From contig USDZ01000001.1 of NCBI GenBank assembly GCA_900553525.1, forward strand, positions 1 through 40,683: a stretch of DNA of 40,683 bases, written 5' to 3'. Positions 19,147-36,302 of the stretch are shown here, one piece after another. The DNA comes from an uncultured Oscillospiraceae bacterium. GTDB lineage: Bacteria > Bacillota > Clostridia > Oscillospirales > Acutalibacteraceae. The position numbers were made by a program, and so were the translations under genes. How positions within the stretch are numbered: position 1 is the stretch's first letter; each line of letters opens with the position of its first letter. The notes below the pieces were generated by a model. That model was not told where the DNA came from. It searched no databases and saw nothing but the letters and a program-made list of their open reading frames with translations.

Positions 19147-19198
19147 CCTGCATCCTTCCCTATATCCACCATGCGTTTTAATTATCTTATACGTAGGA

Positions 19199-19214: not shown

Positions 19215-19221
19215 CGAATAC

Positions 19222-19449: not shown

Positions 19450-19491
19450 ACAAAAAAGGCATATCCCGGTGAAATTTCGCCGGGATATGCC
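19450..19491 (-). terminator. Rho-independent terminator after the MIF-like gene
   Basis: GGCATATCCCGG-N10-CCGGGATATGCC (12-bp stem) followed by TTTTTTGTTG on the minus strand. Confidence 0.8.
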
Positions 19492-19546
19492 GTCGACCAT
19501 ATTTCAATAGGCCGGGGATAAACATTAGGCCCAAAAATTCTATCCA

Positions 19547-19885: not shown

Positions 19886-19901
19886 TGTGTTTCCTCCTTC
19901 T

Positions 19902-20279: not shown

Positions 20280-20325
20280 CCATATACCTTCCTTTCCGGG
20301 GAGTAGGCTTCTATCCATAACCGGC

Positions 20326-20982: not shown

Positions 20983-21297
20983 ATGGAAAACCGCCGTTTC
21001 GTTAAAAACGATCAGGGATTTATCTGCGGACATTGCGGGCGCAGGGTAGAACCGCTGGGCTATACCTCCCGCAACCACTGCCCTTATTGCCTCTATTCCC
21101 TGCATGTGGATATTTATCCCGGAGACCGGCAGAATCCCTGCCGAGGCTTGATGGAACCGGTGGGCCTTGAAATTTCGCCCAAAAAAGGATACGTTATCCG
21201 TTTCCGCTGCACGAAATGCGGAGGCGAAGGACGCAATAAAGCCGCAAGAGACGACGATTATGAGCAGTTGCTCCGCTTGTCCACTAAAGAACATTAA
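20983..21297 (+). CDS. RNHCP domain-containing protein
   Basis: Contains the literal RNHCPYC motif plus CGHCG and CTKCG zinc-ribbon pairs. RBS GGGAGG. Confidence 0.85.
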   Translation: MENRRFVKNDQGFICGHCGRRVEPLGYTSRNHCPYCLYSLHVDIYPGDRQNPCRGLMEPVGLEISPKKGYVIRFRCTKCGGEGRNKAARDDDYEQLLRLSTKEH

Positions 21298-22223
21298 CGC
21301 TGCCCATCCAATGATGTTGCCGCCGGCCAGCGGATGGTGATGGTGAGTTTATTCTGAAGCAGCAGGGCTTCAGTCTCTCCTCCCATCTGCACCGCCAGGC
21401 GATGAACAATCGCAAGCCCCAGCCCCGTGTCTTGTCCGGTCCGCATCTTGTCGGCTGTAAAAAACCGATCAAACAGATGCTCCACATCCTGAGGCAGAAG
21501 TCCCGGTGCCAAATTGGTAAAGCAGGTGACGACAAGCTCCTCTTCCTGGAATACCCGGACATACAGATCCCCTGTCCCATGCTTGATGGCATTTTGAAAC
21601 AGGTTGGTATAGATGCGCAGAATCGCCTGCGGATCCCCTAAGATGGGAGACAGGTTTTCGGCGATATCGAGTTCAACCTTTCGTCCGGATTCATGAAAAT
21701 CGGCATAAAATGCCGCCGCCAACTCATATAGAACAGAGGCAAGCGCCACCGGCTCTTTTACAAGGGTGTAGCCGCCCGCCTCTAAACAGGACAGGTCATA
21801 AAAGCCCGTAATCAAGGCTTTGAGGGCATTGGCGCGGTTCTCTACGATGTCAAGATATTCCCGGCGTTCCTGCGGACCAACATCCTCCGATTTGAGGATC
21901 TGCAAATAGCCGAGAATCGAAGTCAAAGGGGTTCGCAGGTCATGGGAAATGTTGGCGATCTCCAGCCGCCGCTGCTGTTCCTGCCGGTGATGCAAGCTGT
22001 CGTTAGCCTGCCGGTCATCGAGCAGCGCGTTGATTTCTTCAAGCAGACGCTCCAGTTCTCGATCGGGGACCCTCAGTTTAAGCCGTTGGTTGGTCCGGGT
22101 ACGCCGCAGTTCTTCCAGCGACATCCGCGCTTTGTGCAGGTTGTGTCTATACAATACCAGTGCGGCAACACACGCGACGAGCAGAAGGGTCAATGCGGCG
22201 ATGATCCATCCGGCGGGCTCCAT
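21294..22223 (-). CDS. Sensor histidine kinase with one N-terminal TM and no extracytoplasmic domain
   Basis: One TM (WIIAALTLLLVACVAALVLY), H-box ISHDLRTPL, N-box NLFQNAIKH and G-box DTGLGLAIV. Confidence 0.9.
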   Translation of the reverse strand: MEPAGWIIAALTLLLVACVAALVLYRHNLHKARMSLEELRRTRTNQRLKLRVPDRELERLLEEINALLDDRQANDSLHHRQEQQRRLEIANISHDLRTPLTSILGYLQILKSEDVGPQERREYLDIVENRANALKALITGFYDLSCLEAGGYTLVKEPVALASVLYELAAAFYADFHESGRKVELDIAENLSPILGDPQAILRIYTNLFQNAIKHGTGDLYVRVFQEEELVVTCFTNLAPGLLPQDVEHLFDRFFTADKMRTGQDTGLGLAIVHRLAVQMGGETEALLLQNKLTITIRWPAATSLDGQR

Positions 22224-22254
22224 TTCTTCTCACCCTCTTTGTCTTTAGTATAGC

Positions 22255-22290
22255 ACATCCTTCCCGGATTGGAAAGTCCGGGAAGGATGT
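22255..22290 (-). other. 14-bp perfect hairpin between the permease and kinase genes; no U-tract; directly followed by TATACT
   Basis: The minus strand reads ACATCCTTCCCGGA-ctttccaa-TCCGGGAAGGATGT, then gcTATACT. Confidence 0.6.
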
Positions 22291-22338
22291 CCCCTGCTGT
22301 CACTCTCTCCCGAAGTCGGAAATTTCCAGGAATGCGGG

Positions 22339-23106
22339 TCAATGGATTTCCTTTTTGCGGTAGAAGATTAGCCCGATTAAGGTGCTGCCTATCAGATAAG
22401 CGGCGCCTGTGACGACGCTGCGCAGGATGATCTCGTTGGTCAGCTCGGTATTAGCCAGTTGTTCGAGCAGCGGCGTCATCAACCACAAGCGCACTTCGCC
22501 CAGAAACGGATAATAATATGCCGCCATCTGTAAAACCACGGGCAAAGCAGCAAAAAGTCCAATAAAAAACAGCGTATACAGCGTGCTGCTCTTGAAGTGG
22601 AAGGCCAGCATGTTGCCAAAGGAAAGGGCTCCGATCCATAAAGGAAGGGAAACCAGCAGACGCTGGCCAAACTTCACAAACAATTCAGAAAACGAAACCG
22701 GATATACAGGCCCCAGCAGCAGGAGGCCGACGCCCAAAATGACGCCCAGGATGACTATAAGGCTGATGACCGCCACAATCAGTTCCGCGGCCAGCTTACC
22801 CAGATAAAGACTCGTCCGGGGAATGCCGAAAGCCAGAGGATTCTTCATTGTCTGATTCTTATATTCTTCCGAAAACACCATATCCACAAAAGCCACCGTC
22901 AAATAAAGCCCCAGCGGCAGCATATACAGGGTAAATCCGATCATGCCGTCAAAGCCGACCTGTTTATCGGCTGGAAGATTGGGATTGGTAAAGGCGAAGA
23001 GAAAAACCATCAGAAGGCCGAGGGCCACGATAACCCCGCTAAATACAAAAGGATACAGACGATGACAGGTTTTATACAGTTCACTCTTGATGACACGGAG
23101 CATCAC
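22339..23106 (-). CDS. ABC-2 type transporter permease (lantibiotic/bacitracin-immunity-like)
   Basis: About six hydrophobic spans and an N-terminal VIKSELYKTCHR motif typical of ABC-2 immunity permeases. The ATGA overlaps the ATPase gene. Confidence 0.8.
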   Translation of the reverse strand: MMLRVIKSELYKTCHRLYPFVFSGVIVALGLLMVFLFAFTNPNLPADKQVGFDGMIGFTLYMLPLGLYLTVAFVDMVFSEEYKNQTMKNPLAFGIPRTSLYLGKLAAELIVAVISLIVILGVILGVGLLLLGPVYPVSFSELFVKFGQRLLVSLPLWIGALSFGNMLAFHFKSSTLYTLFFIGLFAALPVVLQMAAYYYPFLGEVRLWLMTPLLEQLANTELTNEIILRSVVTGAAYLIGSTLIGLIFYRKKEIH

Positions 23107-24047
23107 GCAAACCCCCTTTCGTTCCCTTCCGGGCGTGAACGGCTTAAAAGTTGAAGGAAGTAGTCCTCCAAATTGGTTCCGCGGGTATTGATCGTCTGTA
23201 CCCGTACGCCATCTTCGGTCAGCGCCGTCGTCACCTTTACCGGTTCCTCCAGAAAAGCATAAACCCGAATGCGATTTTCCGGGAGAATCTCATACGAGGA
23301 GCAGTGCAGGCGGCTTTCCAGCGATACGGCCGCCTTGGGAGCATCGTCCACCGTCAATTCCAGGCATTCCCGGCAGCATTCCTCGATATCCTTTGCCGAG
23401 ATCTGCTGCAGCATCCGACCGCCGTCGATAAACCCGTAATGGGTTGCGAGATTGGCAAGCTCGCTGAGGATATGGCTGGAAATCAAAATGGTGATCTGCC
23501 GTTCGGCGTTCAGGCGAAGCAGCAGGTCCCGGAACTGCACGATTCCCATTGGATCCAGCCCATTGATCGGTTCATCCAGAAGAAGCAGATCCGGGCTGCC
23601 CAGAATTGCCAATGCCAACCCCAAACGCTGTTTCATACCCAGGGAGAACTGCTTGAATTTTTTATTCTTGGTATCGCTCAAGCCGACAAGCCGCAAAGCG
23701 TCCCGAATGCAGTCCCGACCCGCGATCCCTCGCTGCAGCCGGTAATATTCCAGATTCTGTTCCGCTGTCAGAAAAGGATAAAAGCTCGGCGTTTCAATCA
23801 CCGCGCCCATCCGTTCCCGCATACGGCCGGCACCGCGCGGATCCGCCGCCCCGAACAATTCAATTTCTCCCGAGGTCGGGCTGCTTTGTGAGGTAATCAT
23901 CCGCATCAAAGTGGTCTTGCCCGCTCCATTTTTTCCAACCAATCCGTAAATCTGCCCGCGTTCCACCCGCAGATTTACATGGTTTACGGCCAGCGCGGAA
24001 CCATACCGTTTGCATAGGTTCCGTGTGACCAGCACATTGTCCGTCAT
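23103..24047 (-). CDS. ABC transporter ATP-binding protein (BcrA-like)
   Basis: Walker A GKNGAGKTT, signature FSLGMKQR, Walker B LLLLDEP. I prefer ATG 24047 (GGAAGG 9 nt upstream) over 24056. Confidence 0.9.
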   Translation of the reverse strand: MTDNVLVTRNLCKRYGSALAVNHVNLRVERGQIYGLVGKNGAGKTTLMRMITSQSSPTSGEIELFGAADPRGAGRMRERMGAVIETPSFYPFLTAEQNLEYYRLQRGIAGRDCIRDALRLVGLSDTKNKKFKQFSLGMKQRLGLALAILGSPDLLLLDEPINGLDPMGIVQFRDLLLRLNAERQITILISSHILSELANLATHYGFIDGGRMLQQISAKDIEECCRECLELTVDDAPKAAVSLESRLHCSSYEILPENRIRVYAFLEEPVKVTTALTEDGVRVQTINTRGTNLEDYFLQLLSRSRPEGNERGFA

Positions 24048-24102
24048 ACTGTCCATCCTTCCATCTGAGATTGGCCTCAGTATACCCCCCCGCTTTCAAA
24101 AA

Positions 24103-24135
24103 GCCTTAAAGGAAATCTAAAGAAAGTCTAAAGAG
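24103..24135 (-). promoter_or_regulatory. Three direct heptamer repeats at 11-bp spacing (CTTTAGA, CTTTAGA, CTTTAAG on the minus strand) upstream of a TATACT -10; candidate OmpR-family regulator binding site
   Basis: Plus-strand CTTAAAG 24105, TCTAAAG 24116 and TCTAAAG 24127. The -10 is the reverse complement of 24079-24084. No good -35 is present. Confidence 0.4.
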
Positions 24136-24204
24136 ACCGTCCGGTATTCTGCATCCTCTTTTCCAAATGTCCTCGCGTTCCAGATGGAAACCCCGTCCTG
24201 TATT

Positions 24205-24238
24205 TCGACAAAAGACGGACGGGATTTCCTCCCGTCCG
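24205..24238 (-). terminator. Rho-independent terminator between the response-regulator gene and the ABC genes
   Basis: GGACGGGA-ggaaa-TCCCGTCC followed by gTCTTTTGTCG on the minus strand, 12 nt after the regulator's stop. Confidence 0.7.
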
Positions 24239-24249
24239 CCGATTTTCAT

Positions 24250-24948
24250 TCACTCCTCCTCCATCTTAAATCCAATCCCCCAAACGGTTTTGATATAGCC
24301 GTTGTCCGGATCGGCCGCCGCCAGTTTGGCACGCAAATTGCTGATATGCACGTTGACCGTGTTATCGTCTCCGATGTAGGGATCTTCCCAGACCGATTCA
24401 AACAGATTGGCACGGGTGAACACTTTTTTGGGGTGGGAGAGCAGCAAATACAATAACCCGTATTCCCGGACGGTCAAAGATACCTCCCGGCCCTTCACCG
24501 TCACCCGCCGCCCCTCCGGGTCGAGAACCAGTTCCTTAAACTGTAAAGGCGTCTCCCCCTGTTGGGCCGGCGTGAAGCGGGTATACCGACGAAGCTGGGC
24601 CGCCACGCGGGCTTTGACATCCTCGATGTCAAACGGTTTGGAAATAAAGTCATCCGCTCCCTCCGCCAGAACATGGAGCTTATCCTCCCGCCCCTTGGCA
24701 GACAACACGATGACCGGCATCACGTACTTTTTCCGAATGGTTACAAGCAGTTCTTCTCCCGTCAATCCGGGAAGCATCAGATCGAGCAAAATCAAATCAT
24801 ATCGTTCGGATTCCAGGCGCATACCCGCCTCACTGCCGGAATAGGCAGAAGTGACAACATAGCCCTCTTTGGATAACAGGGTGGTCAGCAGGCGGTTGAT
24901 ATCGGCGTCGTCCTCCACCACTAGGATACGCGCTGCGGTGTCCTCCAA
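24250..24948 (-). CDS. OmpR/PhoB family response regulator
   Basis: Receiver ILVVEDD...LILLDLMLPG and a winged-helix C-terminus VWGIGFK. TTG start 8 nt after GGGGAGGA. Confidence 0.9.
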   Translation of the reverse strand: MEDTAARILVVEDDADINRLLTTLLSKEGYVVTSAYSGSEAGMRLESERYDLILLDLMLPGLTGEELLVTIRKKYVMPVIVLSAKGREDKLHVLAEGADDFISKPFDIEDVKARVAAQLRRYTRFTPAQQGETPLQFKELVLDPEGRRVTVKGREVSLTVREYGLLYLLLSHPKKVFTRANLFESVWEDPYIGDDNTVNVHISNLRAKLAAADPDNGYIKTVWGIGFKMEEE

Positions 24949-25492: not shown

Positions 25493-27074
25493 GGCCGGCA
25501 AACAGGCGGACAAACGCCACCGTCTGCGGGAAATTTTGGGGATACTCGCGCAGCACAATATTCTACGCGGCCTTACCCCGGTCAAATTGCGCCTTATTAT
25601 TCAAGATCTGGGACCAACTTTCGTTAAGCTGGGACAGATCCTCTCCATGCGGCAGGATATGCTCCCAGCGGAATATTGCCAAGAACTCACACTCCTTCGG
25701 ACAGACGTGTCCCCCATCCCCTTCGATGAAGTCAAAAAGGTGATCGAGGGGGAATACGGTGCTCCGATGAAATCCCTCTTTTTATCTTTCGATGAAACGC
25801 CCCTCGGTTCTGCCTCGATTGCACAGGTTCACACGGCTGTACTGCGAAACGGGTCCAAGGTCGCCGTCAAGGTGCAGCGCCCCGGCATCTGGGATACGAT
25901 GGCAAGGGACATTGCGCTTCTGCGCAGGGCGGCAGGGATCCTCCAACGGATCGGCGGCATCGGCGGAGTCATCGACTTTGGCATGGTACTCGACGAGATG
26001 TGGGCCGTGGCGCAGGAAGAGATGGACTTTCTTCTGGAAGCCCGTCATATGGACGAGTTCCGGGATGGAAACGCCGGCGTCGCGTATGTTTCCTGTCCTC
26101 GGGTGGAACACCGTTATACCACCTCGCGCGCCTTGATGATGGAATATATAGACGGCATCTCCATCGACGATACCGACCGTCTTCGGCGGGAGGGATATGA
26201 CCTCGATGAAATCGGGGAAAAACTGGCTGAAAATTATGTCCGGCAGATTCTGGACGAAGCTTTTTTTCATGCCGACCCCCATCCCGGCAATCTGCGGATA
26301 CGGGACGGCAAAATCATTTGGCTGGATCTCGGCATGATGGGCCGTCTAACTGAAAAGGACCGCGAACTCCTGAAAACTGCTGTGACAGCCGTGGCACAGT
26401 ACGACGCCGGGACTCTCAAAGACGTGCTGTTGGCGCTGGGCGTTCACAGTGGACGGATCGACCATGTCCGCCTCTATGCGGACATTGACGAATTCCTGTC
26501 GAAATACGCCGGAATGAGCATGGCAGAAATCGACCTGGCGCAACTGATGCAGGAACTCCTGTCTCTGGCCGAATCCCACGGCATCTCAATGCCCAAAGGT
26601 CTGTCCATGCTGGCTCGGGGCATCGTCACCATTCAAGGGGTTTTGGCCCGGATCAGCCCCGACATCCAGATCATCACGATCATGCACAACCACATTGCGG
26701 GCGGAGCCTTCGCTTCCTTCAACCTGAAAAAGGAAATGGAAAGCGGGGCCATGACCCTGCTGACTTCCAGCCGCAAGGCGCTCGACGTTCCGGCCCAGAT
26801 GTCCGACTTACTGAAAAACACGCTTAAAGGCCAGACCAAATTCTATATCGAACTAACCGGCTCGGCAGATCCTCTAAAGGCTGCTGACCAGCGGATGGAC
26901 AAGCTGGTTCTTGCATTGATCGACGCGGCTCTGATCATCGGCGCGAGTTTGCTTTCCACTTTAGATGCCGGACCCCGATTCTGGGGACTCCCGGTGCCGT
27001 CATGGATTGGGTATCTATTGGCTCTTGCGTTGGGCGGCGTGCTGCTGTTTCGAATGCGCCGCCGAAAGCGTTGA
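25473..27074 (+). CDS. ABC1/UbiB (AarF) family atypical kinase with two C-terminal TM segments
   Basis: LGPTFVKLGQILSMRQDMLPAEY, ASIAQVH, VAVKVQRPG and HADPHPGN. ATG 25473 overlaps the phasin-like gene by 20 nt. Confidence 0.9.
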   Translation: MDNRKIEAGKQADKRHRLREILGILAQHNILRGLTPVKLRLIIQDLGPTFVKLGQILSMRQDMLPAEYCQELTLLRTDVSPIPFDEVKKVIEGEYGAPMKSLFLSFDETPLGSASIAQVHTAVLRNGSKVAVKVQRPGIWDTMARDIALLRRAAGILQRIGGIGGVIDFGMVLDEMWAVAQEEMDFLLEARHMDEFRDGNAGVAYVSCPRVEHRYTTSRALMMEYIDGISIDDTDRLRREGYDLDEIGEKLAENYVRQILDEAFFHADPHPGNLRIRDGKIIWLDLGMMGRLTEKDRELLKTAVTAVAQYDAGTLKDVLLALGVHSGRIDHVRLYADIDEFLSKYAGMSMAEIDLAQLMQELLSLAESHGISMPKGLSMLARGIVTIQGVLARISPDIQIITIMHNHIAGGAFASFNLKKEMESGAMTLLTSSRKALDVPAQMSDLLKNTLKGQTKFYIELTGSADPLKAADQRMDKLVLALIDAALIIGASLLSTLDAGPRFWGLPVPSWIGYLLALALGGVLLFRMRRRKR

Positions 27075-27422
27075 GTTACCCTAATATAAAAGAAGATTGG
27101 CCTCACGGGGCCCTCCCCCCTTTTAGGCCCCACCGCCATACTCGTCACTCTGGCTCTGTGCGTAATGCTGCGCTCTCTGTCCGCCCGGAAGCCGGAACGG
27201 AATTTCCGTGTGTTTATCTTTCATTTCTCGTATGGGAACTGGTTTTTCCTCCTGGACGCGCTTTTCTATAACTTAGGTGAAAAATTCTACCATTCCTGCC
27301 GTATGCGGCCTCATTCCGCCGGGAAAGAGCGGTTCGGCCTGGATTGGGGGCGTTAAAACACGGCGCTCATCATCGCTCCAAACAAAAAATCGGCACTATT
27401 TTAGAGAGAAGACACGATTTTT

Positions 27423-27448
27423 CCCCGGACCGGTTTGCCAGTCCGGGG
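27423..27448. other. Hairpin marking the left edge of the AT-richer LytTR/ABC segment
   Basis: CCCCGGAC-N10-GTCCGGGG, an 8-bp stem. Confidence 0.5.
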
Positions 27449-27496
27449 ATACATTTGTTCTAATCCTTTATATTTGTAAAAACTGTTCTCTTAGAT

Positions 27497-27525
27497 TTGA
27501 AATATATGGGCATTTCTGCTATTAT
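27497..27525 (+). promoter_or_regulatory. Putative sigma-70 promoter of the LytTR-kinase genes (TTGAAA-17-TATTAT)
   Basis: TTGAAA at 27497-27502, a 17-nt spacer, and TATTAT at 27520-27525. This implies a ~230-nt leader. Confidence 0.5.
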
Positions 27526-27765
27526 ATATGAGATAAACAAGGCGTATTTTTATGAGTATTGGTTATAAGTCGTTGTTTGAACGGGATATGGGAAAACCGG
27601 TCTTCTGCATGGGGTGGGAATGGCGTAAACCCCCTTGCAAAACTCGGTAAAAATGGGTCTGCTAAGCTCGTCCTGTCTATAAAAAGCCGCGGGGCTGCCG
27701 AATTGAAGAGGAAGTGGAATTGCTGGATGAATGAGTTGAAAAAATCAAAGGGCGGGAGAATCGCA

Positions 27766-28464
27766 ATGAGATATAAAATTGCCATCTGTGACGACATGGA
27801 ACAGGATATAAAATATCTGGACTCTCTTGTCAACAAATGGGCTGTTCGAGTCAAAGCCTCTGTCGACATTCGCACATTTCCGTCTGCGGAAACCTTTTTG
27901 TTTGATTATGCAGAACAGAAGGATTATGATATTTTGTTGCTGGATATTGAGATGAAGTCCATAAACGGCATGGAGCTTGCCAAAAAGATCCGTAAGGAGA
28001 ACGAGGCGGTGCAGATTATCTTTACTACGGGATATTCGGATTATATTGCCGAAGGTTATGAGGTCGCGGCGCTGCATTATTTGATGAAGCCTGTTTCTCC
28101 AGAAAAGCTGGAAAACGTTCTGAACCGTGCCACAATGCAAATCAAGAAAAACGAAAAATCACTGTTTCTTTCGCTATCAGGTGAAATGATTCGGATTCCG
28201 GTTTACGAGATCCAATATCTTGAGGTGCAGCAAAACTATGTGACGATCCATGCTAAGAAGGACTATACCATTAAAAAGACACTGGGTGAATTTGAGCGGG
28301 AGTTGGACGACCGGTTTTACCGCATGGGGCGGTCTTATCTTTTGAATCTCTCCTATATTGATAAAATTACGAAAAACCGTGTTTTCCTTTCGGATGGCTT
28401 GATCATCCCACTGCCCAGAGGGCAGTACGAACCATTGGTCAAAGCGTTTATTGCGCATACATAA
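27766..28464 (+). CDS. LytTR/AlgR family response regulator
   Basis: Receiver IAICDD...ILLLDIEM and a C-terminal LytTR domain (IPVYEIQYLEVQQNYVTIH...FYRMGRSYLLNL). ATG 27766 lies 8 nt after GGGAG. The ORF-track 5' extension looks non-coding. Confidence 0.9.
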   Translation: MRYKIAICDDMEQDIKYLDSLVNKWAVRVKASVDIRTFPSAETFLFDYAEQKDYDILLLDIEMKSINGMELAKKIRKENEAVQIIFTTGYSDYIAEGYEVAALHYLMKPVSPEKLENVLNRATMQIKKNEKSLFLSLSGEMIRIPVYEIQYLEVQQNYVTIHAKKDYTIKKTLGEFERELDDRFYRMGRSYLLNLSYIDKITKNRVFLSDGLIIPLPRGQYEPLVKAFIAHT

Positions 28465-28475
28465 CGGAGGCTGCT

Positions 28476-29138
28476 ATGAAATTTTTCTCGAAACAAATCG
28501 ATAAACGCCTTGCCGCCTATCAACGGGAATTGATTGAAACACATTATACAGAAGTTGAAAATATGTATAAGCAGATGCGCGGCTGGCGCCATGACTATCG
28601 AAATCATATTCAGGCCATGAAAGCCTATGCGGCCAGCGGAGATATGCAGGCAATCCAAACGTATCTGGACGAATTGGAAACCGATTTGTCCACGGTAGAT
28701 ACCGCTGTTAAAACGGGCAATCCGATGGCGGATGCGATCCTCAACAGCAAAATTTCTCTTGCAAAATCAAGAAATGTCCCGGTGAAGGCGGATGTGTTTA
28801 TTCCGCTTGCTCTGAAAACTTCGGAACTGGATTTATGCGTGATCATAGGAAATCTTTTCGATAATGCTATCGAAGCCAGCCTCGCGTTGCCGGAGGAAAA
28901 GCGTCTGATCCGCATCTATATGGATATGAAAAACACGCAGCTTTATATTTCTTTTACCAATTTCACGGCCACGAAAAAGCAAAGGAAACAGAACGGAAGA
29001 TTTCAGACAACCAAAGGAAACGGACACGGTTTCGGTTTAGTCAGAATGGATACCATTATTGAAAGGCTGGACGGATATATCAACCGGAACAGTGAGGACG
29101 GCGCTTTTACCACGGAAATTCTCATCCCGCAAACATGA
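28476..29138 (+). CDS. GHKL-domain sensor kinase of the AgrC/HPK10 type lacking any transmembrane segment (220 aa)
   Basis: H-box WRHDYRNHIQ at residue ~38, N-box IIGNLFDNAIEA and G-box GHGFGL. I see no hydrophobic span. RBS GGAGG. Confidence 0.85.
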   Translation: MKFFSKQIDKRLAAYQRELIETHYTEVENMYKQMRGWRHDYRNHIQAMKAYAASGDMQAIQTYLDELETDLSTVDTAVKTGNPMADAILNSKISLAKSRNVPVKADVFIPLALKTSELDLCVIIGNLFDNAIEASLALPEEKRLIRIYMDMKNTQLYISFTNFTATKKQRKQNGRFQTTKGNGHGFGLVRMDTIIERLDGYINRNSEDGAFTTEILIPQT

Positions 29139-29139
29139 T

Positions 29140-29169
29140 GCAGTTCGTCACCCGCAAACAACGATTCGT
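29140..29169 (+). promoter_or_regulatory. Candidate LytTR box: two 9-mers (GCAGTTCGT, ACGATTCGT) separated by 12 nt
   Basis: The 9-mers match the LytTR consensus [TA][AC][CA]GTTN[AG][TG] at 8/9 and 7/9 positions, with 21-bp start-to-start spacing. A TAAAAT -10 candidate lies at 29201-29206 with a poor -35. Confidence 0.45.
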
Positions 29170-29229
29170 CCCCAAAATACCATTTGGGAGCGTCGCATGA
29201 TAAAATGGGCAGTGAGAGGGGTGGAAATT

Positions 29230-31089
29230 TTGAAAAAAGAGAAAGAAAAAACCGCAAAGCCCAAATATAACATGTGGCAGTGTTCCGCGTACATGATAGC
29301 GCTTACGTGGCGCGAAAAAGAGAAAAAGGTTCTGGTTTTGTGCTCGTTGCAGGTTTTGCTTGCGGTGGCAAGCAATCTGGTTAACCTGTATGTTTCGCCG
29401 TCCATCCTGTCGGTTGTGGAACGGCGGGCTTCGTTTACGGAGTTAACCGTGACCCTTTTGCTGTTTGTTTTGCTGTTGATGCTTTGTTCGGCGGCGACTT
29501 CCTATGTGAATGCCAATACTTTATACGGAAGAATCACCGTCCGATTATCGGTGATCGCGGCATTAAACAAAAAAGCCTGCACTACCTCTTATCCCAATTT
29601 GACAGACGAAAAATTTATCAAGCTGGGATCCAAGTCGCAGCAGGCAGTAAACGGTAATCGAGCAGCCACCGAAGCCGTTTGGGAGACGCTCACATCCCTC
29701 ATGCAAAATATTATTGGTTTTGTTATTTACCTGTTTTTACTGGTGTCCCTGGATTTATGGCTGATGGTGGTCATTTTACTCACCGCTTTAGTAGGGTATT
29801 TTGTGAATAAAAAGCTGACCGGCTACGGATACCGGCATCGTGAAGAAGAGGGCGAAATATCCGCAAAACTATGGTATCAGACCGACCAGGCAAGAAATTA
29901 CTGCGCGGCAAAGGATATTCGGATTTTTGGCATGAAGCCGTGGATTCAGGAGATCACCGCCAAAGCGATGACAGCGTATACCGCTTTTCATCGCCGTGCG
30001 AACAACATATACATCTGGGGAAGTATCCTGGATTTGGTGCTGGCGTTTCTGCGAAACGGCCTTGCGTATGCCTTTTTGATCCATTCGGTACTGACAAGCG
30101 AATTGAGCGTATCCGCATTCCTCCTGTATTTCTCGGCGGTAAACGGCTTTACCGCGTGGGTAAGCGGTATTCTGGGCAGTATGACAACCCTGTATCGCCA
30201 AAGTCTCGACATTTCCACCGTAAGAGAATTTATCGAATATCCGGAGCCTTTCCGGTTTGAAGACGGGGAAGAATTATCGGCTTCTGCCGATACCCAACAT
30301 GAACTTACGCTTGAGCATGTGTTTTTTAAGTATCCGGGAGCAGAGGAGTATACTCTGGAGGATATCAATATTACAATTCATCCGGGAGAAAAAATTGCCG
30401 TTGTCGGACTCAACGGCGCGGGAAAAACCACGCTCGTCAAGCTCCTTTGCGGCTTTTTTGACCCGACGCGCGGAAGGGTTCTCCTGGACGGAAAGGACAT
30501 CCGAACTTATAACCGGCAGGATTATTACACGATGTTTTCGGCGGTTTTTCAGGATTTTTCGCTGCTGGCAGGAACCGTGGCCACCAATATCGCGCAAGCG
30601 GAAGAGAATCCGGATATGGAGCGCATAAAGGACTGTGTGGAAAAGGCCGGGCTTACCGCGAAAATTAATTCCTTGAAAGACGGCTACCAGACCTATTTAA
30701 ACCGTGTCGTTTATGAAGACGGGGCGGAATTGTCGGGTGGGGAAACACAACGGCTGATGCTGGCCCGCGCCCTTTACAAAAAAGCGCCGTTTATCATTCT
30801 GGATGAACCGACGGCCGCCCTTGACCCCATCGCGGAAGCGGATCTGTACAGCAAATATAACGACATGACACAGGGCTGTACGTCCGTTTACATTTCACAC
30901 CGCCTTGCTTCCACCCGCTTTTGTGATCGGATCCTGCTGATTAGCGATCATAAAATTGCGGAAGAAGGCACCCACGAGGAACTCTTGAAGCTTTCCGGTG
31001 AATATGCGCGGCTGTTTGCAATTCAGAGCAAATATTACCGAGAGGGGGATGTTTATGAAAAAGGAAAAGAAGCTGCCGACCTGGCGTGA
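29230..31089 (+). CDS. ABC exporter, fused permease/ATPase
   Basis: Walker A GLNGAGKTT, signature LSGGETQR, Walker B FIILDEPTAALD. I prefer TTG 29230 behind GAGAGGGGTGG: (L)KKEKEKTAKPKYNMW parallels MKKEKKLPTW of the partner gene. ATG 29197 is the alternative start. Confidence 0.85.
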   Translation: MKKEKEKTAKPKYNMWQCSAYMIALTWREKEKKVLVLCSLQVLLAVASNLVNLYVSPSILSVVERRASFTELTVTLLLFVLLLMLCSAATSYVNANTLYGRITVRLSVIAALNKKACTTSYPNLTDEKFIKLGSKSQQAVNGNRAATEAVWETLTSLMQNIIGFVIYLFLLVSLDLWLMVVILLTALVGYFVNKKLTGYGYRHREEEGEISAKLWYQTDQARNYCAAKDIRIFGMKPWIQEITAKAMTAYTAFHRRANNIYIWGSILDLVLAFLRNGLAYAFLIHSVLTSELSVSAFLLYFSAVNGFTAWVSGILGSMTTLYRQSLDISTVREFIEYPEPFRFEDGEELSASADTQHELTLEHVFFKYPGAEEYTLEDINITIHPGEKIAVVGLNGAGKTTLVKLLCGFFDPTRGRVLLDGKDIRTYNRQDYYTMFSAVFQDFSLLAGTVATNIAQAEENPDMERIKDCVEKAGLTAKINSLKDGYQTYLNRVVYEDGAELSGGETQRLMLARALYKKAPFIILDEPTAALDPIAEADLYSKYNDMTQGCTSVYISHRLASTRFCDRILLISDHKIAEEGTHEELLKLSGEYARLFAIQSKYYREGDVYEKGKEAADLA

Positions 31090-32935
31090 AACATGGAAGC
31101 TCAACCGGCGCGCTTTTTCTTTGATTTATAAGCGTTGCCCTCGGATGATTGTTTCCCGGCTCATGAGTATCATTTGGGATGCTCTGACTCCGTATGTCGA
31201 CATTTATCTTTCGGCCCTGTTGATCACGGAACTTACCGGAACCCGCAATCCTTCCGTACTTACCAGGCTTGTTCTGATTATTTTGTGTTCGGCGGCGGTT
31301 ATTTCACTGGTGGCCGCCTTTCTGCATAAATGGCGCGATACGGAATGTGCCGGTCTTTATTACAAGGTGCAGCTCATTTTTTCTGAAAAAACGATGAGTA
31401 TGGACTATGCGGATGCAGACGATGCCAAAACCCATGAACTGTATAATACCATTGAGCAAAACCGCAACGGCGGCGGGTGGGGACTAAACCGGGTATACGG
31501 TCATATTGAAGGGCTCCTTTCAGCATTTCTCACCTTATTTGGCGGGATTGCGTTGACAATCTCATTATTTACAAGCCGTGTGCCGGAATCCTCCGGCGGG
31601 TATACCATTCTGAATAGCCCCTTGTTTATTCTGCTGATGATTTCGGTTATGCTGGCCATTACCTATTTTGCTCCCCTGCTTTCCAATAAAGCCGGAAGTT
31701 ATTATGCGCTCCATTCCGACTCCCACAATTTAGGGAACCGTTTGTTTGGCTATTTCGGCTTTCTTGGCTATAAAAATAACTTGGCCGCCGATGTGCGGAT
31801 TTACAGACAGGATTTGATTTGCGATAAGTATGCCAAGGATAAGACCACAACATTTAATTCCAAAGGGATATTTGCCAAATTTGCGAAAGGGCCGATGGGT
31901 CTTTATCATGCGGCGTCATCAGCTGTATCGGTTCTATTTACAGGGGTGGTCTACGCCTTTGTGTGCTTGAAAGCCCTGGGCGGCGCATTTGGAATCGGCG
32001 CTGTTACGCAATATGTATCCGCTATCACGCGGCTTGCCGGAAGCATCGGCTCTTCGATTGGCATCATGGGAGAAATGCGGAATAACGCCTCTTTTCTCAA
32101 GCTGATCTTTGAATTTTTGGATATTCCCAACCGCATGTATCAAGGCAGTTTGACGGTAGAAAAACGCATGGATCGGGATTATGAAATTGAATTTTGCAAC
32201 GTTTCTTTTCAATATCCCGGGAGTGAAACTTTTGCACTGCAAAATGTTTCGATGAAATTCCGTATCGGGGAGCGCCTTGCGGTGGTCGGCATGAACGGGA
32301 GCGGGAAAACCACCTTTATTAAGCTGCTGTGCCGCTTGTATGATCCGACGGAAGGAGAGATTCTGCTCAACGGGATTAACATTAAAAAATATGATTACAA
32401 GGAATATATGTCCGTCTTTTCGGTGGTGTTTCAGGATTATCAGCTGTTTGCCTACGGTCTCGGTGAAAATGTAGCGACGAAAACCGATTACGATCCAACG
32501 TTAGTGAAACGGTGTTTAACAAATGCCGGATTTGAAGAACGGCTCAAAGAATTACCGGATGGTCTCAATACCTATCTGTATAAGTATTTTTACAAGCAAG
32601 GTATCGATATTTCGGGCGGTGAAGCGCAAAAGATTGCGCTGGCCAGAGCGCTGCATAAAGATGCACCGTTCATCATTTTGGATGAACCGACCGCCGCCCT
32701 CGATCCGGTCGCCGAATATGAGATATACTCGAAGTTCAACGAAATCGTAGAGGACAAAACCGCGGTTTATATCAGCCATCGGCTTTCCTCCTGCCGGTTT
32801 TGCGATACAATCGCCGTGTTTGATCATGGACATATTGTCCAACATGGAAGTCACGACGAGTTGATAGCGGATATAAACGGCAAGTATCATGAGCTTTGGA
32901 ACGCACAGGCGCAGTATTACGTATCCAACACGTAA
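31055..32935 (+). CDS. ABC exporter, fused permease/ATPase, partner of the previous gene
   Basis: Walker A GMNGSGKTT, signature ISGGEAQK, Walker B FIILDEPTAALD. ATG 31055 follows GAGGGGGA and overlaps the upstream gene by 35 nt. Confidence 0.9.
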   Translation: MKKEKKLPTWRETWKLNRRAFSLIYKRCPRMIVSRLMSIIWDALTPYVDIYLSALLITELTGTRNPSVLTRLVLIILCSAAVISLVAAFLHKWRDTECAGLYYKVQLIFSEKTMSMDYADADDAKTHELYNTIEQNRNGGGWGLNRVYGHIEGLLSAFLTLFGGIALTISLFTSRVPESSGGYTILNSPLFILLMISVMLAITYFAPLLSNKAGSYYALHSDSHNLGNRLFGYFGFLGYKNNLAADVRIYRQDLICDKYAKDKTTTFNSKGIFAKFAKGPMGLYHAASSAVSVLFTGVVYAFVCLKALGGAFGIGAVTQYVSAITRLAGSIGSSIGIMGEMRNNASFLKLIFEFLDIPNRMYQGSLTVEKRMDRDYEIEFCNVSFQYPGSETFALQNVSMKFRIGERLAVVGMNGSGKTTFIKLLCRLYDPTEGEILLNGINIKKYDYKEYMSVFSVVFQDYQLFAYGLGENVATKTDYDPTLVKRCLTNAGFEERLKELPDGLNTYLYKYFYKQGIDISGGEAQKIALARALHKDAPFIILDEPTAALDPVAEYEIYSKFNEIVEDKTAVYISHRLSSCRFCDTIAVFDHGHIVQHGSHDELIADINGKYHELWNAQAQYYVSNT

Positions 32936-32948
32936 CCACACAAAACGG

Positions 32949-32994
32949 CCGGCCCTCAGATTCGAGAGAATCCGAGGGCCGGTTGTGGTTTTTA
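32949..32994. terminator. Strong terminator between the convergent ABC and Gfo/Idh/MocA genes
   Basis: CCGGCCCTCAGATTC-gaga-GAATCCGAGGGCCGG (15-bp stem, one G.U pair) followed by TTGTGGTTTTTATT. Confidence 0.8.
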
Positions 32995-33107
32995 TTCCAC
33001 TTCTTCTTTGCTCGTTGTGCTGAAACAGCCGGCCTTGCATCCGGTTATCTTACGCAACAAGGCGGCCTATCCCCTTATCGTTTCCAAAGCCTGCAACGAT
33101 TTCCGAT

Positions 33108-34193
33108 TCAATCGAAGTAGACGGCTTTGCCGGTCTTGGATGAGGTATAGATCGCTTCCAGGATCTCCGTGACCACCAGCGCCTGCTCGGGCAGGACCAG
33201 AGGCTGGGTATCCTTGAGAATCGAGGTGATCCACTGGGAACACTCCAATTCGGAAGGATCGGCGGAAGAGGCTCCATCATAAAAGGCCACCCCACCGGCA
33301 TTCAGATCAACCTTTTCCACCACCTGGCGCCCCAAATGGATCCGATTGAAGCGCAGTCCGTCGATCATGTCTGCGCCGCCCTTGGTTCCGCACAAGGTTG
33401 TCTGGGCCTCCCGGACGTCGAGAAGGTTGATTGCCCAACTGGATTCCAGAATAATCGCAGCGCCGTTTTCCATCGTCACCATACCGAAAGCGGAATCTTC
33501 CACCGTGAACTCTTTCGGATCCCAGTCACCCCAAGCATTCCCGGTCTCCTTCTGATCACCGAGTTTTTTAAACGCCCGGCCGAGAACCGCCTTCGGCTTG
33601 TAATTGTTCATCATCCACAACGTGAGATCGAGCGCGTGGGTACCGATGTCGATCAGCGGGCCGCCTCCCTGCTCATATTCATTGAGGAAAACGCCCCAGG
33701 TAGGCACCGCGCGGCGCCGAATGGCGTGGGCCTTGGCAAAATAAATATCGCCGAGTTCCCCTTCTTCTGCCGCTCGTTTCATCAACAGGGAATCCGGACG
33801 GAAGCGGTTTTGATAACCGATGGTCAGCTTTTTCCCCGTCTTCTTCGCGGTTTCCAGCATCAACCGGGCGTCCGCCGCGGTTTTAGCCATCGGCTTCTCA
33901 CACATGACATGCTTGCCGGCCTCCAACGCCGCCACCGTGATCTCGCAGTGGGAACGATTGGGGGTGCAGACATGCACCACATCGATGGACTTATCCGCCA
34001 GAAGATCCCGATAATCCACATAAACTTTGGCGTCTGCAGTTCCATATGTAGCTTTTGCCGCTTCCGCCCGCTCCACAATCAGGTCACAGAAAGCAACCAT
34101 TTCCGCACGGTCAGCCTGCTTCTTCAAAGCGGGAAGATGCTTGCCGTTCGCAATGCCGCCGCAGCCGATTACACCTACTCTCAATTTTGCCAT
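33108..34193 (-). CDS. Gfo/Idh/MocA family oxidoreductase
   Basis: N-terminal Rossmann motif LRVGVIGCGGIANGKHLPAL and EKP motif CEKPMA. ATG 34193 follows GGAGGA. Confidence 0.9.
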   Translation of the reverse strand: MAKLRVGVIGCGGIANGKHLPALKKQADRAEMVAFCDLIVERAEAAKATYGTADAKVYVDYRDLLADKSIDVVHVCTPNRSHCEITVAALEAGKHVMCEKPMAKTAADARLMLETAKKTGKKLTIGYQNRFRPDSLLMKRAAEEGELGDIYFAKAHAIRRRAVPTWGVFLNEYEQGGGPLIDIGTHALDLTLWMMNNYKPKAVLGRAFKKLGDQKETGNAWGDWDPKEFTVEDSAFGMVTMENGAAIILESSWAINLLDVREAQTTLCGTKGGADMIDGLRFNRIHLGRQVVEKVDLNAGGVAFYDGASSADPSELECSQWITSILKDTQPLVLPEQALVVTEILEAIYTSSKTGKAVYFD

Positions 34194-34527: not shown

Positions 34528-35745
34528 TTATTCATTCAAACTGCCGTCCCATGTTGGCATGTTGGAGATATAAGCTCCATCCACTGCTGGCACATAGTAT
34601 GCCCCATAGGTTTTTAGCCCGTTTTCGCGTTCATCTTCCGGCAATTCGACATAGAAACGATAGTATGGCATAAAATATGCTTCTCGTTCCCCCGCTCGAT
34701 AACCAAGTTCAACTTTTTCAACATACTCTAATCCAGGCATTTCATAAGGGGCGGTGGTGATGTAATTTCCCTTTGACAGCAATTCCTTTGCTTGCTGCGA
34801 ATCAATAATGGGATAATCTCCAACTTTCATCGATAGATCCGGTTGATATATCCTTGCTAAAAATAGTTTTCCCTCATCGTCACAATAGAAAGTCACTCGA
34901 TTAAAATTATAATTGATAATCTGCTCCGCATCATTTCCACTTGCATCAAAAAACTCAATGGAATACATCTGCTGAGCGTAAATGGTATAGTCGCCACCAC
35001 AAATGTTCACCTGCGGATTTTCAATACCGATAAAATCTTTATATTCGGTTTTCAAATATTCAGCCACGGCCACTACATCTTCATAGGGCGCAAAGTGCGT
35101 AAAATTATACTTGTCGGGCAGGGATACTGCGGGTTCAAAAAAGACATTGGCTGTCATAGATTGATCAACTTCGATTACCAATCCCTCTGCTTCCATTATC
35201 AGTTTTGTTGGATCAAAGTATCCCTCGGGAATAGCCTCTTCCCCTATTTGCAGTTTCTCGCGAATCTTTTGTTTTGTTTCCTCGTCCGGTACATCATCGG
35301 TGATAGCGATTTCCTGTGTATCAAGCCCCAATCTGCTGGCAACTTCCAATAAAAACTCCCGCATTTTATCAAAGTCAGCTCCTGATGCAATATGGTTTGC
35401 ATCGTAGGTCAGCGGGTTTTGGTAGACTGGCAGCGTGGATAACTCTAAATCCTCGTTCCAAGGATTTGCGTTCACAAGTTCTGAAACGTCATAAGCCATG
35501 TACCCCTCAAAACCCATTCCGCCGCTTGTATCTTCCGAAATAGAAAGCATAGAAAGATTATGGATATTCCCCGGCGATTCTTGTATAAAAAGCCTTGTTC
35601 CTGCGTGGATCATTATGGCAAATCCGGCGGCAATCGCGCCCCACTTAACCCAACCATTGTTCCTCTTTTTCGGGTTAGCGTCTGCTGCTTCAATAAAAGC
35701 AGGATCGACAAGCTCCATCTTATCTAAAAATTCGGCTCCTCTCAT
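34528..35745 (-). CDS. Membrane-anchored protein of unknown function, translationally coupled to the sigma factor (putative anti-sigma/co-factor)
   Basis: A ~30-aa cytoplasmic N-terminus (FLDKMELVDPAFIEAAD), one TM (WVKWGAIAAGFAIMIHAGTRLF), then ~350 extracytoplasmic residues in which I recognise no domain. The ATGA overlaps the sigma stop. Confidence 0.8.
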   Translation of the reverse strand: MRGAEFLDKMELVDPAFIEAADANPKKRNNGWVKWGAIAAGFAIMIHAGTRLFIQESPGNIHNLSMLSISEDTSGGMGFEGYMAYDVSELVNANPWNEDLELSTLPVYQNPLTYDANHIASGADFDKMREFLLEVASRLGLDTQEIAITDDVPDEETKQKIREKLQIGEEAIPEGYFDPTKLIMEAEGLVIEVDQSMTANVFFEPAVSLPDKYNFTHFAPYEDVVAVAEYLKTEYKDFIGIENPQVNICGGDYTIYAQQMYSIEFFDASGNDAEQIINYNFNRVTFYCDDEGKLFLARIYQPDLSMKVGDYPIIDSQQAKELLSKGNYITTAPYEMPGLEYVEKVELGYRAGEREAYFMPYYRFYVELPEDERENGLKTYGAYYVPAVDGAYISNMPTWDGSLNE

Positions 35746-36302
35746 ATAGTGTAACCCTCCTTTTCAAGATACTCCCGAAGCTGATTGCGGCATCGGAAGA
35801 GCGTGGTTTTCACTTTGCTCTCGGACAGTGCAAAGCGTTTGGAGATGGCAGCGATGGAATCCAAATACCAGTACCGGCGTATAAAAATATTTCTTTTTTC
35901 TTCACCGGACGCGTTGAGAAATCCGTTAATGGCTTTACTTAAAGCCATATCATCCATGCGGCACTCGACATCATCTGGCACCGGAATACATTGTTCCATC
36001 TCTGCGCTGAGTTCGCATATAAAGGCGTTGCGTTTTAGGCGGCTGCGCTCACGGCAGCAATTCAAAGAAATATGGCGAGTGATCCGAGCCAGGTAAGCAT
36101 ATAGATAGCTTCTTGGCTCATGCGGCGGAATTGTGTTCCATGCTTCCACATAGGTGTCGTTTTCGCATTCTTCGGCTGTTTGCCGGTCATGGATTATCCC
36201 ATATGACAAAGAGCGTAAACGGTTTCCGAACTTTTCGGAAGTCTGCTTAATAGCTCTTTCGTCACGGCACAAGTACAGCTCAACGATTTGATTATCGTCC
36301 AA
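35742..36302 (-). CDS. Sigma-70 family (ECF-like) RNA polymerase sigma factor
   Basis: Region 2 ECENDTYVEAWNTIPP...YLYAYLARITRHISLN and region 4 HTH IAAISKRFALSESKVKTTLFRCRNQLREYL. TTG start 8 nt after AGGAGG. Confidence 0.85.
   Translation of the reverse strand: MDDNQIVELYLCRDERAIKQTSEKFGNRLRSLSYGIIHDRQTAEECENDTYVEAWNTIPPHEPRSYLYAYLARITRHISLNCCRERSRLKRNAFICELSAEMEQCIPVPDDVECRMDDMALSKAINGFLNASGEEKRNIFIRRYWYLDSIAAISKRFALSESKVKTTLFRCRNQLREYLEKEGYTI

Follow-up and report, generated by a model that had tools for sequence, protein, structure and literature searches.

How does a histidine kinase that has no sensor domain receive its signal? This question is raised by a four-gene cassette in a 40,683-nucleotide contig (USDZ01000001.1, assembly GCA_900553525.1) of an uncultured Oscillospiraceae bacterium; the whole of this 40.7-kb stretch is called the window below. 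The cassette, encoded on the plus strand, comprises (i) a response regulator with a receiver (REC) and a LytTR DNA-binding domain, (ii) a short kinase of the AgrC type (HPK10), and (iii) two genes, ABC1 and ABC2, for exporter half-transporters of the ATP-binding cassette (ABC) class, in which a transmembrane domain (TMD) is fused to a nucleotide-binding domain (NBD). The original prediction, made from the sequence alone, held that the kinase cannot sense at the membrane on its own and takes its input either from the co-encoded exporter or from the cytosol. This central inference stands: since the kinase has no sensor domain, the input should come from the exporter or from inside the cell. Signal input to sensor-domain-less histidine kinases is an open question, and the well-understood answer, that of BceS, uses membrane-helix contacts, which are absent here.

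Judged from gene order in many species, the association of a short sensor-less kinase with a LytTR regulator and two fused ABC exporters is old and general. Our best explanation in full, to which we assign a probability of about one half, is a self-contained and widely conserved four-gene export module in which the input of the kinase is coupled to the exporter. The new elements are a short kinase form kept throughout the family, relatives with a single helix that share the gene arrangement, the operator-terminator-promoter architecture, the corrected start of ABC1, and the unusual constraint on the kinase.

The kinase and its relatives

The kinase has Pfam matches to HATPase_c_5 (3e-19) and SPOB_a (2.1e-07). 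Its HPK10-type H-box (W37-R-H39-D-Y-R-N-H44), N-box (I123-IGNLFDNAIEA134) and G-box (G183-HGFGL188), read from the translation, are as originally claimed, and all three are invariant across the family alignment. The N-terminus before the phospho-acceptor His39 is short, as had been noted, and counts 38 residues rather than the ~35 first given. A Kyte-Doolittle scan found no 19-residue window at or above 1.6 (maximum 1.57 at residue 107, inside the ATPase core), which confirms the absence of a hydrophobic segment. In an AlphaFold2 monomer model, a single continuous helix of residues 3-36 runs into the H-box and is followed by the second helix of the dimerization and histidine phosphotransfer (DHp) domain and by the catalytic and ATP-binding (CA) domain; the model is moderate (predicted local distance difference test score 64.9, below 50 in the N-terminal helix) and was used for secondary structure and fold class only. 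With no membrane span and only this helix before the H-box, the kinase is indeed unable to sense at the membrane by itself. The closest solved structure is the AgrC kinase module 6e52 (E 1.7e-11 in a sequence search of PDB; top Foldseek match, E 7.8e-12). The nearest NCBIfam models are those of AgrC, aligned over residues 15-197, and DcuS/MalK; the scores are far below the equivalog cut-offs, so no curated family claims the kinase.

The short form of the kinase is widespread. A search of 5.8 billion protein clusters yielded clusters of homologues, more than 120 in number and 79-99% identical, which are all short (219-233 residues), and a scan of a one-genome-per-species collection found at least 537 stretches that encode a relative. 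The best 80 of these relatives, 74-92% identical to the window kinase and each taken with ~16 kb of sequence, form the close set used below; their genomes are labelled Lachnospiraceae, Oscillospiraceae, Ruminococcaceae, Christensenellales, Peptoniphilaceae and Gorillibacterium, among others. Cultured carriers include Gemmiger gallinarum DSM 109015, Negativibacillus massiliensis, Gorillibacterium timonense and Roseburia inulinivorans DSM 16841. In all 80 loci the kinase is 219-236 residues long, and its open reading frame (ORF) starts at aligned residue 1 or at most two residues away, behind a short, stop-bounded upstream frame. The N-terminal consensus is M-x-[FL]-[FL]-S-K-x-I-D-K-R-I-A-A-Y-Q-R-E-L-I-E-T-H-Y. 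The common length, the shared start and the stop-bounded upstream frame contradict the idea, raised with the original prediction as a way in which it could fail, that the ORF is a truncated remnant. On this comparison of homologues, the kinase is short by design.

More distant relatives suggest where this form came from. In a search of 50%-identity representatives, relatives at 40-48% identity were a mixture of helix-less proteins (213-225 residues), proteins with one N-terminal helix (236-273 residues) and multi-span proteins (326-441 residues); those at 35-48% identity include proteins of 326-464 residues, several with a multi-span N-terminal region. The single-helix relatives have essentially no extracytoplasmic residues, and the N-terminus of the soluble kinase corresponds to the juxtamembrane linker of the relatives with membrane spans. 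By this comparison, the soluble kinase seems to stand at the end of a series of forms along which the sensor was lost.

Several unusual proteins were seen among the relatives. In the distant relative P0172 (441 residues), a REC-like N-terminal region, hydrophobic segments and a kinase core can be recognised by eye in one polypeptide. P0168 (360 residues) joins kinase residues 1-107 to an ABC1-type NBD; it was rejected as evidence of interaction, as it has the appearance of a deletion product or a chimeric assembly rather than of a designed fusion. P0202, P0260 and P0191, in which a part of the kinase is joined to unrelated sequence, are most likely deletions or assembly chimeras as well.

Gene order, operator and exporter promoter

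The neighbourhood of the kinase was surveyed in the close loci by tblastn with the four cassette proteins and the products of the two flanking genes. The order regulator-kinase-ABC1-ABC2, with at least two exporter genes, was found in 66 of the 74 close loci with enough flanking sequence. A distant set was assembled from metagenome contigs found with the single-helix relative P0144; its kinases are 44-57% identical to the window kinase and carry one N-terminal helix or none. The same four-gene arrangement is present in 40 of the 50 distant loci with room for it, and in a few the exporter pair is located upstream instead. The kinase-exporter pairing on which the original prediction was built is thus conserved in both sets. 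Three long distant loci have no exporter pair, one of them through a prophage-like insertion. The close loci without the pair are mostly contig-limited, and those inspected are decayed or rearranged cassettes: the exporter genes appear frameshifted in Roseburia inulinivorans DSM 16841 (L076), which may make it a natural mutant, the cassettes of L011 and L055 are rearranged, and in a Peptoniphilaceae locus (L052) the exporters are cut to a 132-residue NBD remnant and the operator is kept (8672-8698). L052 also has a 200-residue ORF, HD-domain-like by sequence reading, inserted between regulator and kinase at 7380-7982. Two complete paralogous cassettes, with one kinase each, stand in tandem in L009, and L043, L079 and L080 have two exporter pairs behind a single two-component system. 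No further conserved gene was found in or beside the cassette among 160 loci. The genes that flank the cassette in the window, for UbiB and for a GFO-family oxidoreductase, are not beside it in other species, except for one weak GFO match in L029.

The hidden Markov model searches suggested with the original prediction were run and confirmed the domains of all four proteins. The regulator matches Response_reg (2.4e-17) and LytTR (6.1e-17), its acceptor residues are canonical in the translation (D9-D10, D59, T87 and K109), and its gene call is matched by the gene calls in identical contigs. The gap of 11 nt between regulator and kinase and the 35-nt overlap of ABC1 and ABC2 were found in the ORF listing as described, at the same coordinates. 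The two exporter genes, described as ~620 codons long, encode 619 and 626 residues, with ABC_tran matches of 1.4e-32 and 8.8e-29, respectively. NCBIfam models of MsbA-, HlyB- and CydCD-type fused exporters span ABC1 end to end, and in ABC2 they cover the C-terminal half. The TMD of ABC2 is divergent towards its N-terminus and has no Pfam ABC_membrane match. Hydropathy indicates 5-6 clear membrane spans per exporter protein. No peptidase domain was found in the exporters by Pfam, and the proteins are too short to contain one. As the paired, overlapping genes suggest, the products of ABC1 and ABC2 probably form a heterodimer. Walker A, the xSGGE signature, the Walker B glutamate (FIILDEP) and the H-loop histidine are canonical in both proteins; with canonical catalytic motifs in both NBDs, neither ATP site is degenerate. 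Heterodimeric type-IV exporters such as BmrCD, PatAB and TM287/288 usually, though not necessarily, combine a degenerate ATP site with a consensus one.

The spacer between the kinase gene and ABC1 contains a conserved array of signals in the following order: direct repeats, an extended -10 element, a GAGGTGA-type ribosome-binding site and the start codon. The word ATTCGTCCCC occurs in this spacer in 50 of 69 loci, and the shorter TTCGTCCC in 53 of 69. The words belong to direct repeats, tGCAaTTCgTCcCC and aaCgATTCGTCCCC, with the consensus C[AG][AG]TTC[GA]TC[CA]CC, and the period is exactly 21 bp in 32 of 36 adjacent TTCGTC pairs. The window has a single exact match to the paired motif TTCRTC-N15-TTCRTC (29144-29170). 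Of the 80 close loci, 67 likewise contain one copy and no more, and it invariably lies immediately before ABC1. The exporter genes of L024 and L035 have the opposite orientation to the kinase gene, and there the motif is found on the minus strand in front of ABC1. It moves with ABC1 in these loci and is hence a part of the exporter promoter rather than of the kinase gene end; as it occurs once per locus and tracks ABC1, the exporter promoter is the conserved target of the system. At agrP2, the two 9-bp binding sites of AgrA are separated by 12 bp, which amounts to the same 21-bp period (PMC10482373). Two short direct repeats with this period very probably constitute a LytTR-type operator, the predicted binding site of the regulator.

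Downstream of the repeats, the extended -10 element (TGnTAnnnT) is present in 64 of 68 sites, and its hexamer lies 31 nt past the core of repeat 2 in 50 of these 64, as in the window. A promoter had been guessed at 29140-29210; it is real and carries the LytTR-type operator. An inverted copy of repeat 2 was found in 43 of the 68 sites and is followed by a T-run in 35. In RNA folding, repeat 2 and its inverted copy form an 11-12-bp hairpin followed by U residues (z = -3.2 in L022 and -2.7 in L082), which in most loci would terminate the regulator-kinase transcript on the exporter promoter. In the window, by contrast, the hairpin at repeat 2 is degenerate (z = 0.28), which makes read-through into the exporter genes plausible here.

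The conserved spacer also bears on the start of ABC1. Several gene callers begin the gene, in their calls for L001-L005 and L007, at ATG 29197, which gives 630 residues and falls inside the conserved extended -10 region. The start at TTG 29230, used in the L006 gene call (619 residues), agrees with the conserved ribosome-binding site and with the N-termini seen in other species, and is most likely the correct one.

The regulator-kinase operon is putatively transcribed from the best sigma-70-type promoter match before the regulator (10 of 12 positions), and -10 words resembling TGCTATAAT are found again in front of the regulator gene at other loci. No repeat pair is present upstream of the regulator in the window, and the operator motif is not enriched upstream of regulators, as only 11 of 63 upstream regions contain even one TTCGTC on either strand. 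The upstream region of the regulator is otherwise not conserved between loci or species. In the window, the non-coding stretch between the UbiB gene and the regulator is unusually long (27075-27765, 690 nt); it contains the 27423-27448 hairpin, the promoter match and a leader of ~240 nt. No riboswitch or other known RNA was detected in this leader or in 26500-34000 by Rfam at E up to 1. Of the two hairpins said to bracket the cassette, the 3' one is a real terminator-like stem; the 5' one has a stem of only 8 bp and is not terminator-like (Table 1).

Additional copies of the operator were considered as clues to function and rejected. The second repeat pair of L020 lies within a 3.6-kb insertion with HAD-hydrolase-like and deaminase-like ORFs, and that of L031 is inside an unrelated gene; neither of the two is informative.

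Table 1. Positions of the cassette, its predicted regulatory elements and the adjacent two-component module in the window
Feature	Position	Strand	Description
Response regulator	27766-28464	+	REC and LytTR DNA-binding domains, 232 residues
Histidine kinase	28476-29138	+	soluble AgrC-type (HPK10) core, 220 residues; from Pfam, hydropathy and homologues
ABC1	29230-31089	+	fused TMD-NBD type-IV-like exporter half-transporter, 619 residues from TTG 29230
ABC2	31055-32935	+	second fused TMD-NBD exporter half-transporter, 626 residues
Putative sigma-70-like promoter	27497-27525	+	TTGAAA-17-TATTAT with TG extension; best match upstream of regulator, 10/12
Direct repeat 1	29141-29152	+	CAGTTCGTCACC; predicted LytTR-type operator; begins 3 nt past kinase stop
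Direct repeat 2	29162-29173	+	CGATTCGTCCCC; predicted LytTR-type operator; 21 bp from repeat 1
Weak hairpin	29167-29192	+	degenerate here; strong hairpin at the same place in most other loci
Extended -10	29198-29206	+	TGATAAAAT; TG 29198-29199, hexamer TAAAAT 29201-29206
Ribosome-binding site (Shine-Dalgarno)	29214-29224	+	GAGAGGGGTGG; precedes TTG 29230
5' hairpin	27423-27448		8-bp GC-rich stem, no T-run; not flagged by terminator scan
3' hairpin	32949-32982		15-bp GC-rich stem, terminator-like; between convergent ABC2 and GFO-family oxidoreductase genes; listed on minus strand by terminator scan
OmpR-type regulator	24250-24948	-	
47-residue ORF	24106-24249	-	
ABC ATPase	23103-24056	-	
ABC-2 permease	22339-23106	-	
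HisKA kinase	21294-22223	-	309 residues; one N-terminal hydrophobic helix, no sensor domain

Proposed wiring of the module and input to the kinase

The wiring that we propose for the module is, as a whole, very likely. The regulator and the kinase would be transcribed from their own sigma-70-type promoter, which has no operator. The bare DHp-CA core of the kinase would phosphorylate the REC-LytTR regulator, and the phosphorylated regulator would bind the two 12-bp direct repeats, at 21 bp spacing, just downstream of the kinase gene. Bound there, it would activate the extended -10 promoter that drives ABC1 and ABC2, the predicted halves of a type-IV ABC heterodimer in which both ATP sites are canonical. 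The hairpin present in most species would end the regulator-kinase transcript at this promoter, making the expression of the exporter dependent on the phosphorylated regulator. We infer the phosphotransfer, the repeat binding and the heterodimerization from homology and motif conservation.

For the input, the reading that we favour is that the kinase senses a generic feature of the working cycle of the exporter through its cytosolic face, that is, the NBDs or the coupling helices. The outcome would be a need-based, activity-dependent induction of the exporter, which follows the logic of BceAB-BceS with other protein families and no membrane contact, and the relatives with a single anchor helix would represent a membrane-tethered form of the same arrangement. 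We prefer this input because no partner other than the exporter pair is conserved, because nothing more than a membrane anchor is retained in the relatives, and because the kinase is held nearly invariant. An origin of the signal in the exporter cycle on the cytosolic side, reached by elimination and analogy, is nevertheless a tentative choice that falls somewhat short of an even chance. The most specific version, a soluble kinase core switched by the ATPase cycle of a type-IV exporter via NBD or coupling-helix contacts, without a membrane-embedded sensor, is rather doubtful.

The pattern of constraint in the module is informative on this point. Identities were measured against the window proteins in the close set, in which loci were chosen by kinase similarity, somewhat inflating the kinase figure. 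The median identity is 76% for the kinase DHp domain and 78% for the CA domain, 65% and 70% for the NBDs of ABC1 and ABC2, 59% and 57% for the REC and LytTR domains of the regulator, and 42% and 40% for the TMDs of ABC1 and ABC2. In the distant set, which was collected with another query, the DHp domain (53%) is ahead of most other domains, with the ABC2 NBD higher at 57%. An alignment of 30 kinases that are at least 79% identical shows no variation in 110 of its 220 columns; C121 and most of the N-terminal helix fall in this invariant half. Fourfold-degenerate sites of the kinase gene are identical to the window gene at a fraction of 0.18-0.53, even for proteins that are 91-92% identical. Near-random fourfold sites at a protein identity of ~77% point to old divergence under strong purifying selection and not to recent transfer. 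The membrane domains of the exporter, which would hold the substrate site, diversify, whereas the kinase barely changes; the kinase therefore probably does not recognise the transported compound, and a near-invariant kinase beside diversifying TMDs argues for the reading of something generic.

Three observations weigh against an input from the exporter. First, kinase identity tracks regulator identity in the close set (rho 0.57), but not that of ABC1 or ABC2 (rho 0.23 and 0.18, not significant), and the missing co-variation supports no specific kinase-exporter interface; it fits docking on an invariant NBD surface and no docking equally well. Second, kinase and regulator are intact in L052 despite the loss of the exporter, so the two-component system can persist without it, at least for a time. 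Third, the sensing of activity needs some basal exporter, and the strong terminator in most loci would limit read-through.

The first alternative is that the kinase is an ungated, constitutively active core, and that the level of the exporter is set by transcription of the regulator-kinase operon or by the balance of acetyl phosphate and phosphatase; the module would then be an amplifier or a gauge of growth state rather than a stimulus sensor. The absence of any input domain, and of a sensor that could restrain the linker helix, speaks for such a core, as does the operator-free promoter of the regulator-kinase operon. A latch between R238 and Q305 keeps AgrC in the off state, and replacement of R238 by alanine makes the protein constitutive (PMC6755735). 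In the window kinase the arginine next to the histidine is kept (R38) and the equivalent of Q305 is a lysine, so that the latch may not form, a comparison made on a single pairwise alignment. A constitutive promoter could, however, replace such a kinase, yet it is near-invariant under purifying selection in hundreds of genomes, and the terminator and operator make the exporter strictly dependent on the regulator, which suggests regulated expression. We consider constitutive activity unlikely.

The kinase core may instead sense a generic cytosolic cue (nucleotide or energy state, pH, redox state via Cys121, a second messenger, or a membrane-proximal cue via the N-terminal helix), with the exporter as output only. 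The very high constraint on the whole protein surface and the decoupling of kinase divergence from exporter divergence would fit this possibility. Sensing within DHp regions has been proposed for EnvZ, and structural studies of HK853, which is represented among the Foldseek fold matches of the kinase, have addressed pH-gated switching. Against it, no ligand-binding domain is recognisable, with only 38 residues before His39; apart from the regulator, conserved gene linkage exists only with the exporter pair; and a kinase that binds the exported compound should diversify with the TMDs, which it does not. A cytosolic cue of this kind thus appears improbable as well.

In a third scenario, the sensor would be a separate, unlinked membrane protein that docks on the N-terminal helix of the kinase, as a split sensor or accessory protein. 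The helix is strongly conserved and corresponds to the juxtamembrane linker of the relatives with membrane spans. On the other hand, neither another conserved gene in or beside the cassette (160 loci) nor a conserved small upstream ORF was found, and the paralogous cassettes of L009 would each need their own unlinked partner, which makes this arrangement very unlikely. The last alternative, a truncated AgrC/ComD-type kinase or a degenerate Agr-like quorum-sensing locus, could draw on the existence of larger multi-span relatives, from which the soluble form presumably derives, but is hardly credible given that length, start and catalytic motifs are intact in all close homologues, that the near-random fourfold sites reflect strong selection on the short form, that stop codons upstream of the kinase in all 80 loci exclude mis-called fragments, and that no AgrB/AgrD-like gene or conserved peptide ORF was seen in the cassette or the scanned flanks.

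The original prediction had likewise reported no agrB/agrD-like gene, and the general Pfam scan of the four-gene cassette and its flanks agrees, no dedicated AgrB or AgrD profile search having been run. One candidate for a leader peptide or an AgrD-like product, a 32-residue ORF at 27552-27650 (MSIGYKSLFERDMGKPVFCMGWEWRKPPCKTR), was rejected, as it is not conserved and no small upstream ORF is conserved in 62 loci.

Among the known systems, BceRS-BceAB of Bacillus subtilis, a module of Firmicutes for resistance to antimicrobial peptides, shares several features with the favoured exporter-coupled module. Its kinase BceS has two membrane spans, is of the intramembrane-sensing type and makes contact with BceB inside the membrane; its regulator BceR is OmpR-type. 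In both cases a kinase without a sensor domain stands beside an ABC transporter, the target is the promoter of the transporter itself, and entire modules occur in paralogous copies that have a kinase of their own. BceAB controls BceS, which senses the activity of the transporter, and its permease has an extracellular loop of 200-250 residues (PMC7828314). In contrast, the kinase described here is span-free and of the HATPase_c_5 type, the regulator is of the LytTR and not the Trans_reg_C family, and the transporter consists of fused TMD-NBD exporter halves rather than a separate ATPase and an FtsX-fold permease with a large extracellular domain. Any kinase-transporter coupling here would have to be cytosolic.

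HPK10/AgrC-type kinases have a polytopic N-terminal sensor of 5-8 spans that binds a secreted peptide. The systems AgrC-AgrA (Staphylococcus aureus), ComDE, PlnBCD, FsrCA and VirSR resemble the module in the kinase core (HATPase_c_5 and an SPOB_a-like DHp domain), in the adjacent REC-LytTR regulator, which is conserved across loci, and in an operator with a 21-bp period as at agrP2 (PMC10482373). They differ in that the module lacks a polytopic sensor and an autoregulatory operator before the regulator-kinase genes, its output is an exporter, and the operator repeat sequence TTCGTCCCC is peculiar to it. NatK-NatR of B. subtilis is also a LytTR-type two-component system that targets an adjacent ABC transporter operon, natAB; however, NatK is multi-span, and NatAB is a separate ATPase and an ABC-2-type permease, not a fused exporter pair.

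The published cases closest in spirit are AtcS-AtcR and BmrD-KinA. In AtcS-AtcR of Treponema denticola, the kinase partner of a LytTR regulator has no sensing domain that could be identified; the adjacent ABC transporter TDE0028-0029 changes expression in an atcS mutant, and BceS-like sensing has been suggested by the authors (PMC12070737). AtcS, which is likened to the window kinase by description only, is membrane-bound and affects motility and many other genes. BmrD, a subunit of the heterodimeric exporter BmrCD (YheI/YheH) of B. subtilis, has been reported to interact with the soluble kinase KinA, and a passing of signals from the exporter to the kinase has been proposed (PMC7828314). This case, too, links a fused TMD-NBD heterodimeric exporter to a soluble histidine kinase, but KinA has PAS domains and feeds the sporulation phosphorelay, and its gene is not linked to those of the exporter. 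Expression of BmrCD is governed by ribosome-mediated attenuation via the BmrB leader peptide and not by a two-component system, and the exporter has one degenerate ATP site, whereas both sites are canonical here. No published description of the module was found in the full-text literature, a search whose coverage leaves out most subscription journals.

Genomic context and significance

The cassette had been thought to be more AT-rich than its flanks, and the computed composition agrees: its GC content is 0.464 versus 0.517 in the rest of the window, and the GC content at third codon positions (GC3) of its genes is 0.50-0.56 versus 0.655 and 0.666 in the flanking genes. Other patches of the window, namely 34.5-36.3 kb and the HSP20 region, are equally AT-rich. 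Composition together with varying genomic context is compatible with a past acquisition and weakly suggests one. For the proposed acquired module there are thus the composition and the unconserved flanks; against a recent event stand the absence of a mobility gene adjoining the cassette in the window, the absence of close relatives on plasmids (the best plasmid matches are ~30% identical or less), and the saturated synonymous sites.

An empty-site comparison did not define the borders of an island: among the same-species contigs listed, all that reach past the flank carry the cassette between UbiB and GFO, except for L169. In that contig (7065-9543), the kinase is cut to 139 residues, comprising the SPOB_a part only, and a Phage_integrase fragment, a DUF6262 gene and an 85-residue ORF stand in place of ABC1 and ABC2. 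This variant indicates that the module is dispensable in some strains. The 90% cluster of the kinase has members of 118 and 137 residues, which may be fragments related to the L169 form.

A second module of a two-component system and an ABC transporter lies just upstream of the cassette on the minus strand (21294-24948; Table 1). As its HisKA kinase also has no sensor domain, the window contains two sensor-less kinases, each beside a transporter. Further upstream, 16131-20742 on the minus strand encodes FeoB and two FeoA proteins, followed by MIF-, ArsC- and YjbQ-family genes; they look like ordinary chromosomal housekeeping genes, and the arrangement is common to the same-species metagenome contigs that reach that far. 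Beyond the other end of the cassette is an AT-rich gene pair on the minus strand (34528-36302, GC3 0.41-0.51), which encodes a 186-residue protein with a weak Sigma70_r2 match and, in an overlapping ORF, 405 residues without a Pfam match and with a mildly hydrophobic stretch near residue 35 that is below the cut-off. The layout of the pair resembles that of an extracytoplasmic function sigma factor and its anti-sigma factor.

The module provides a minimal test case for signal input: a soluble kinase of 220 residues, one regulator, a sharply defined operator and promoter, and one exporter pair, which could be reassembled from four genes. The operator consensus allows regulon prediction, and the analysis corrects the ABC1 start used by several gene callers. 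If the exporter does control the kinase from the cytosolic face, this would be a new coupling of transport to transcription and could provide a general activity readout for type-IV ABC exporters, a class that includes many multidrug pumps. One near-invariant kinase design would then be reused across hundreds of Clostridia species for exporters with diversified membrane domains. The named hosts among the at least 537 relatives are mainly gut and rumen Lachnospiraceae, Oscillospiraceae and Ruminococcaceae, and the module may shape the responses of these commensals to drugs, bile or antimicrobial peptides.

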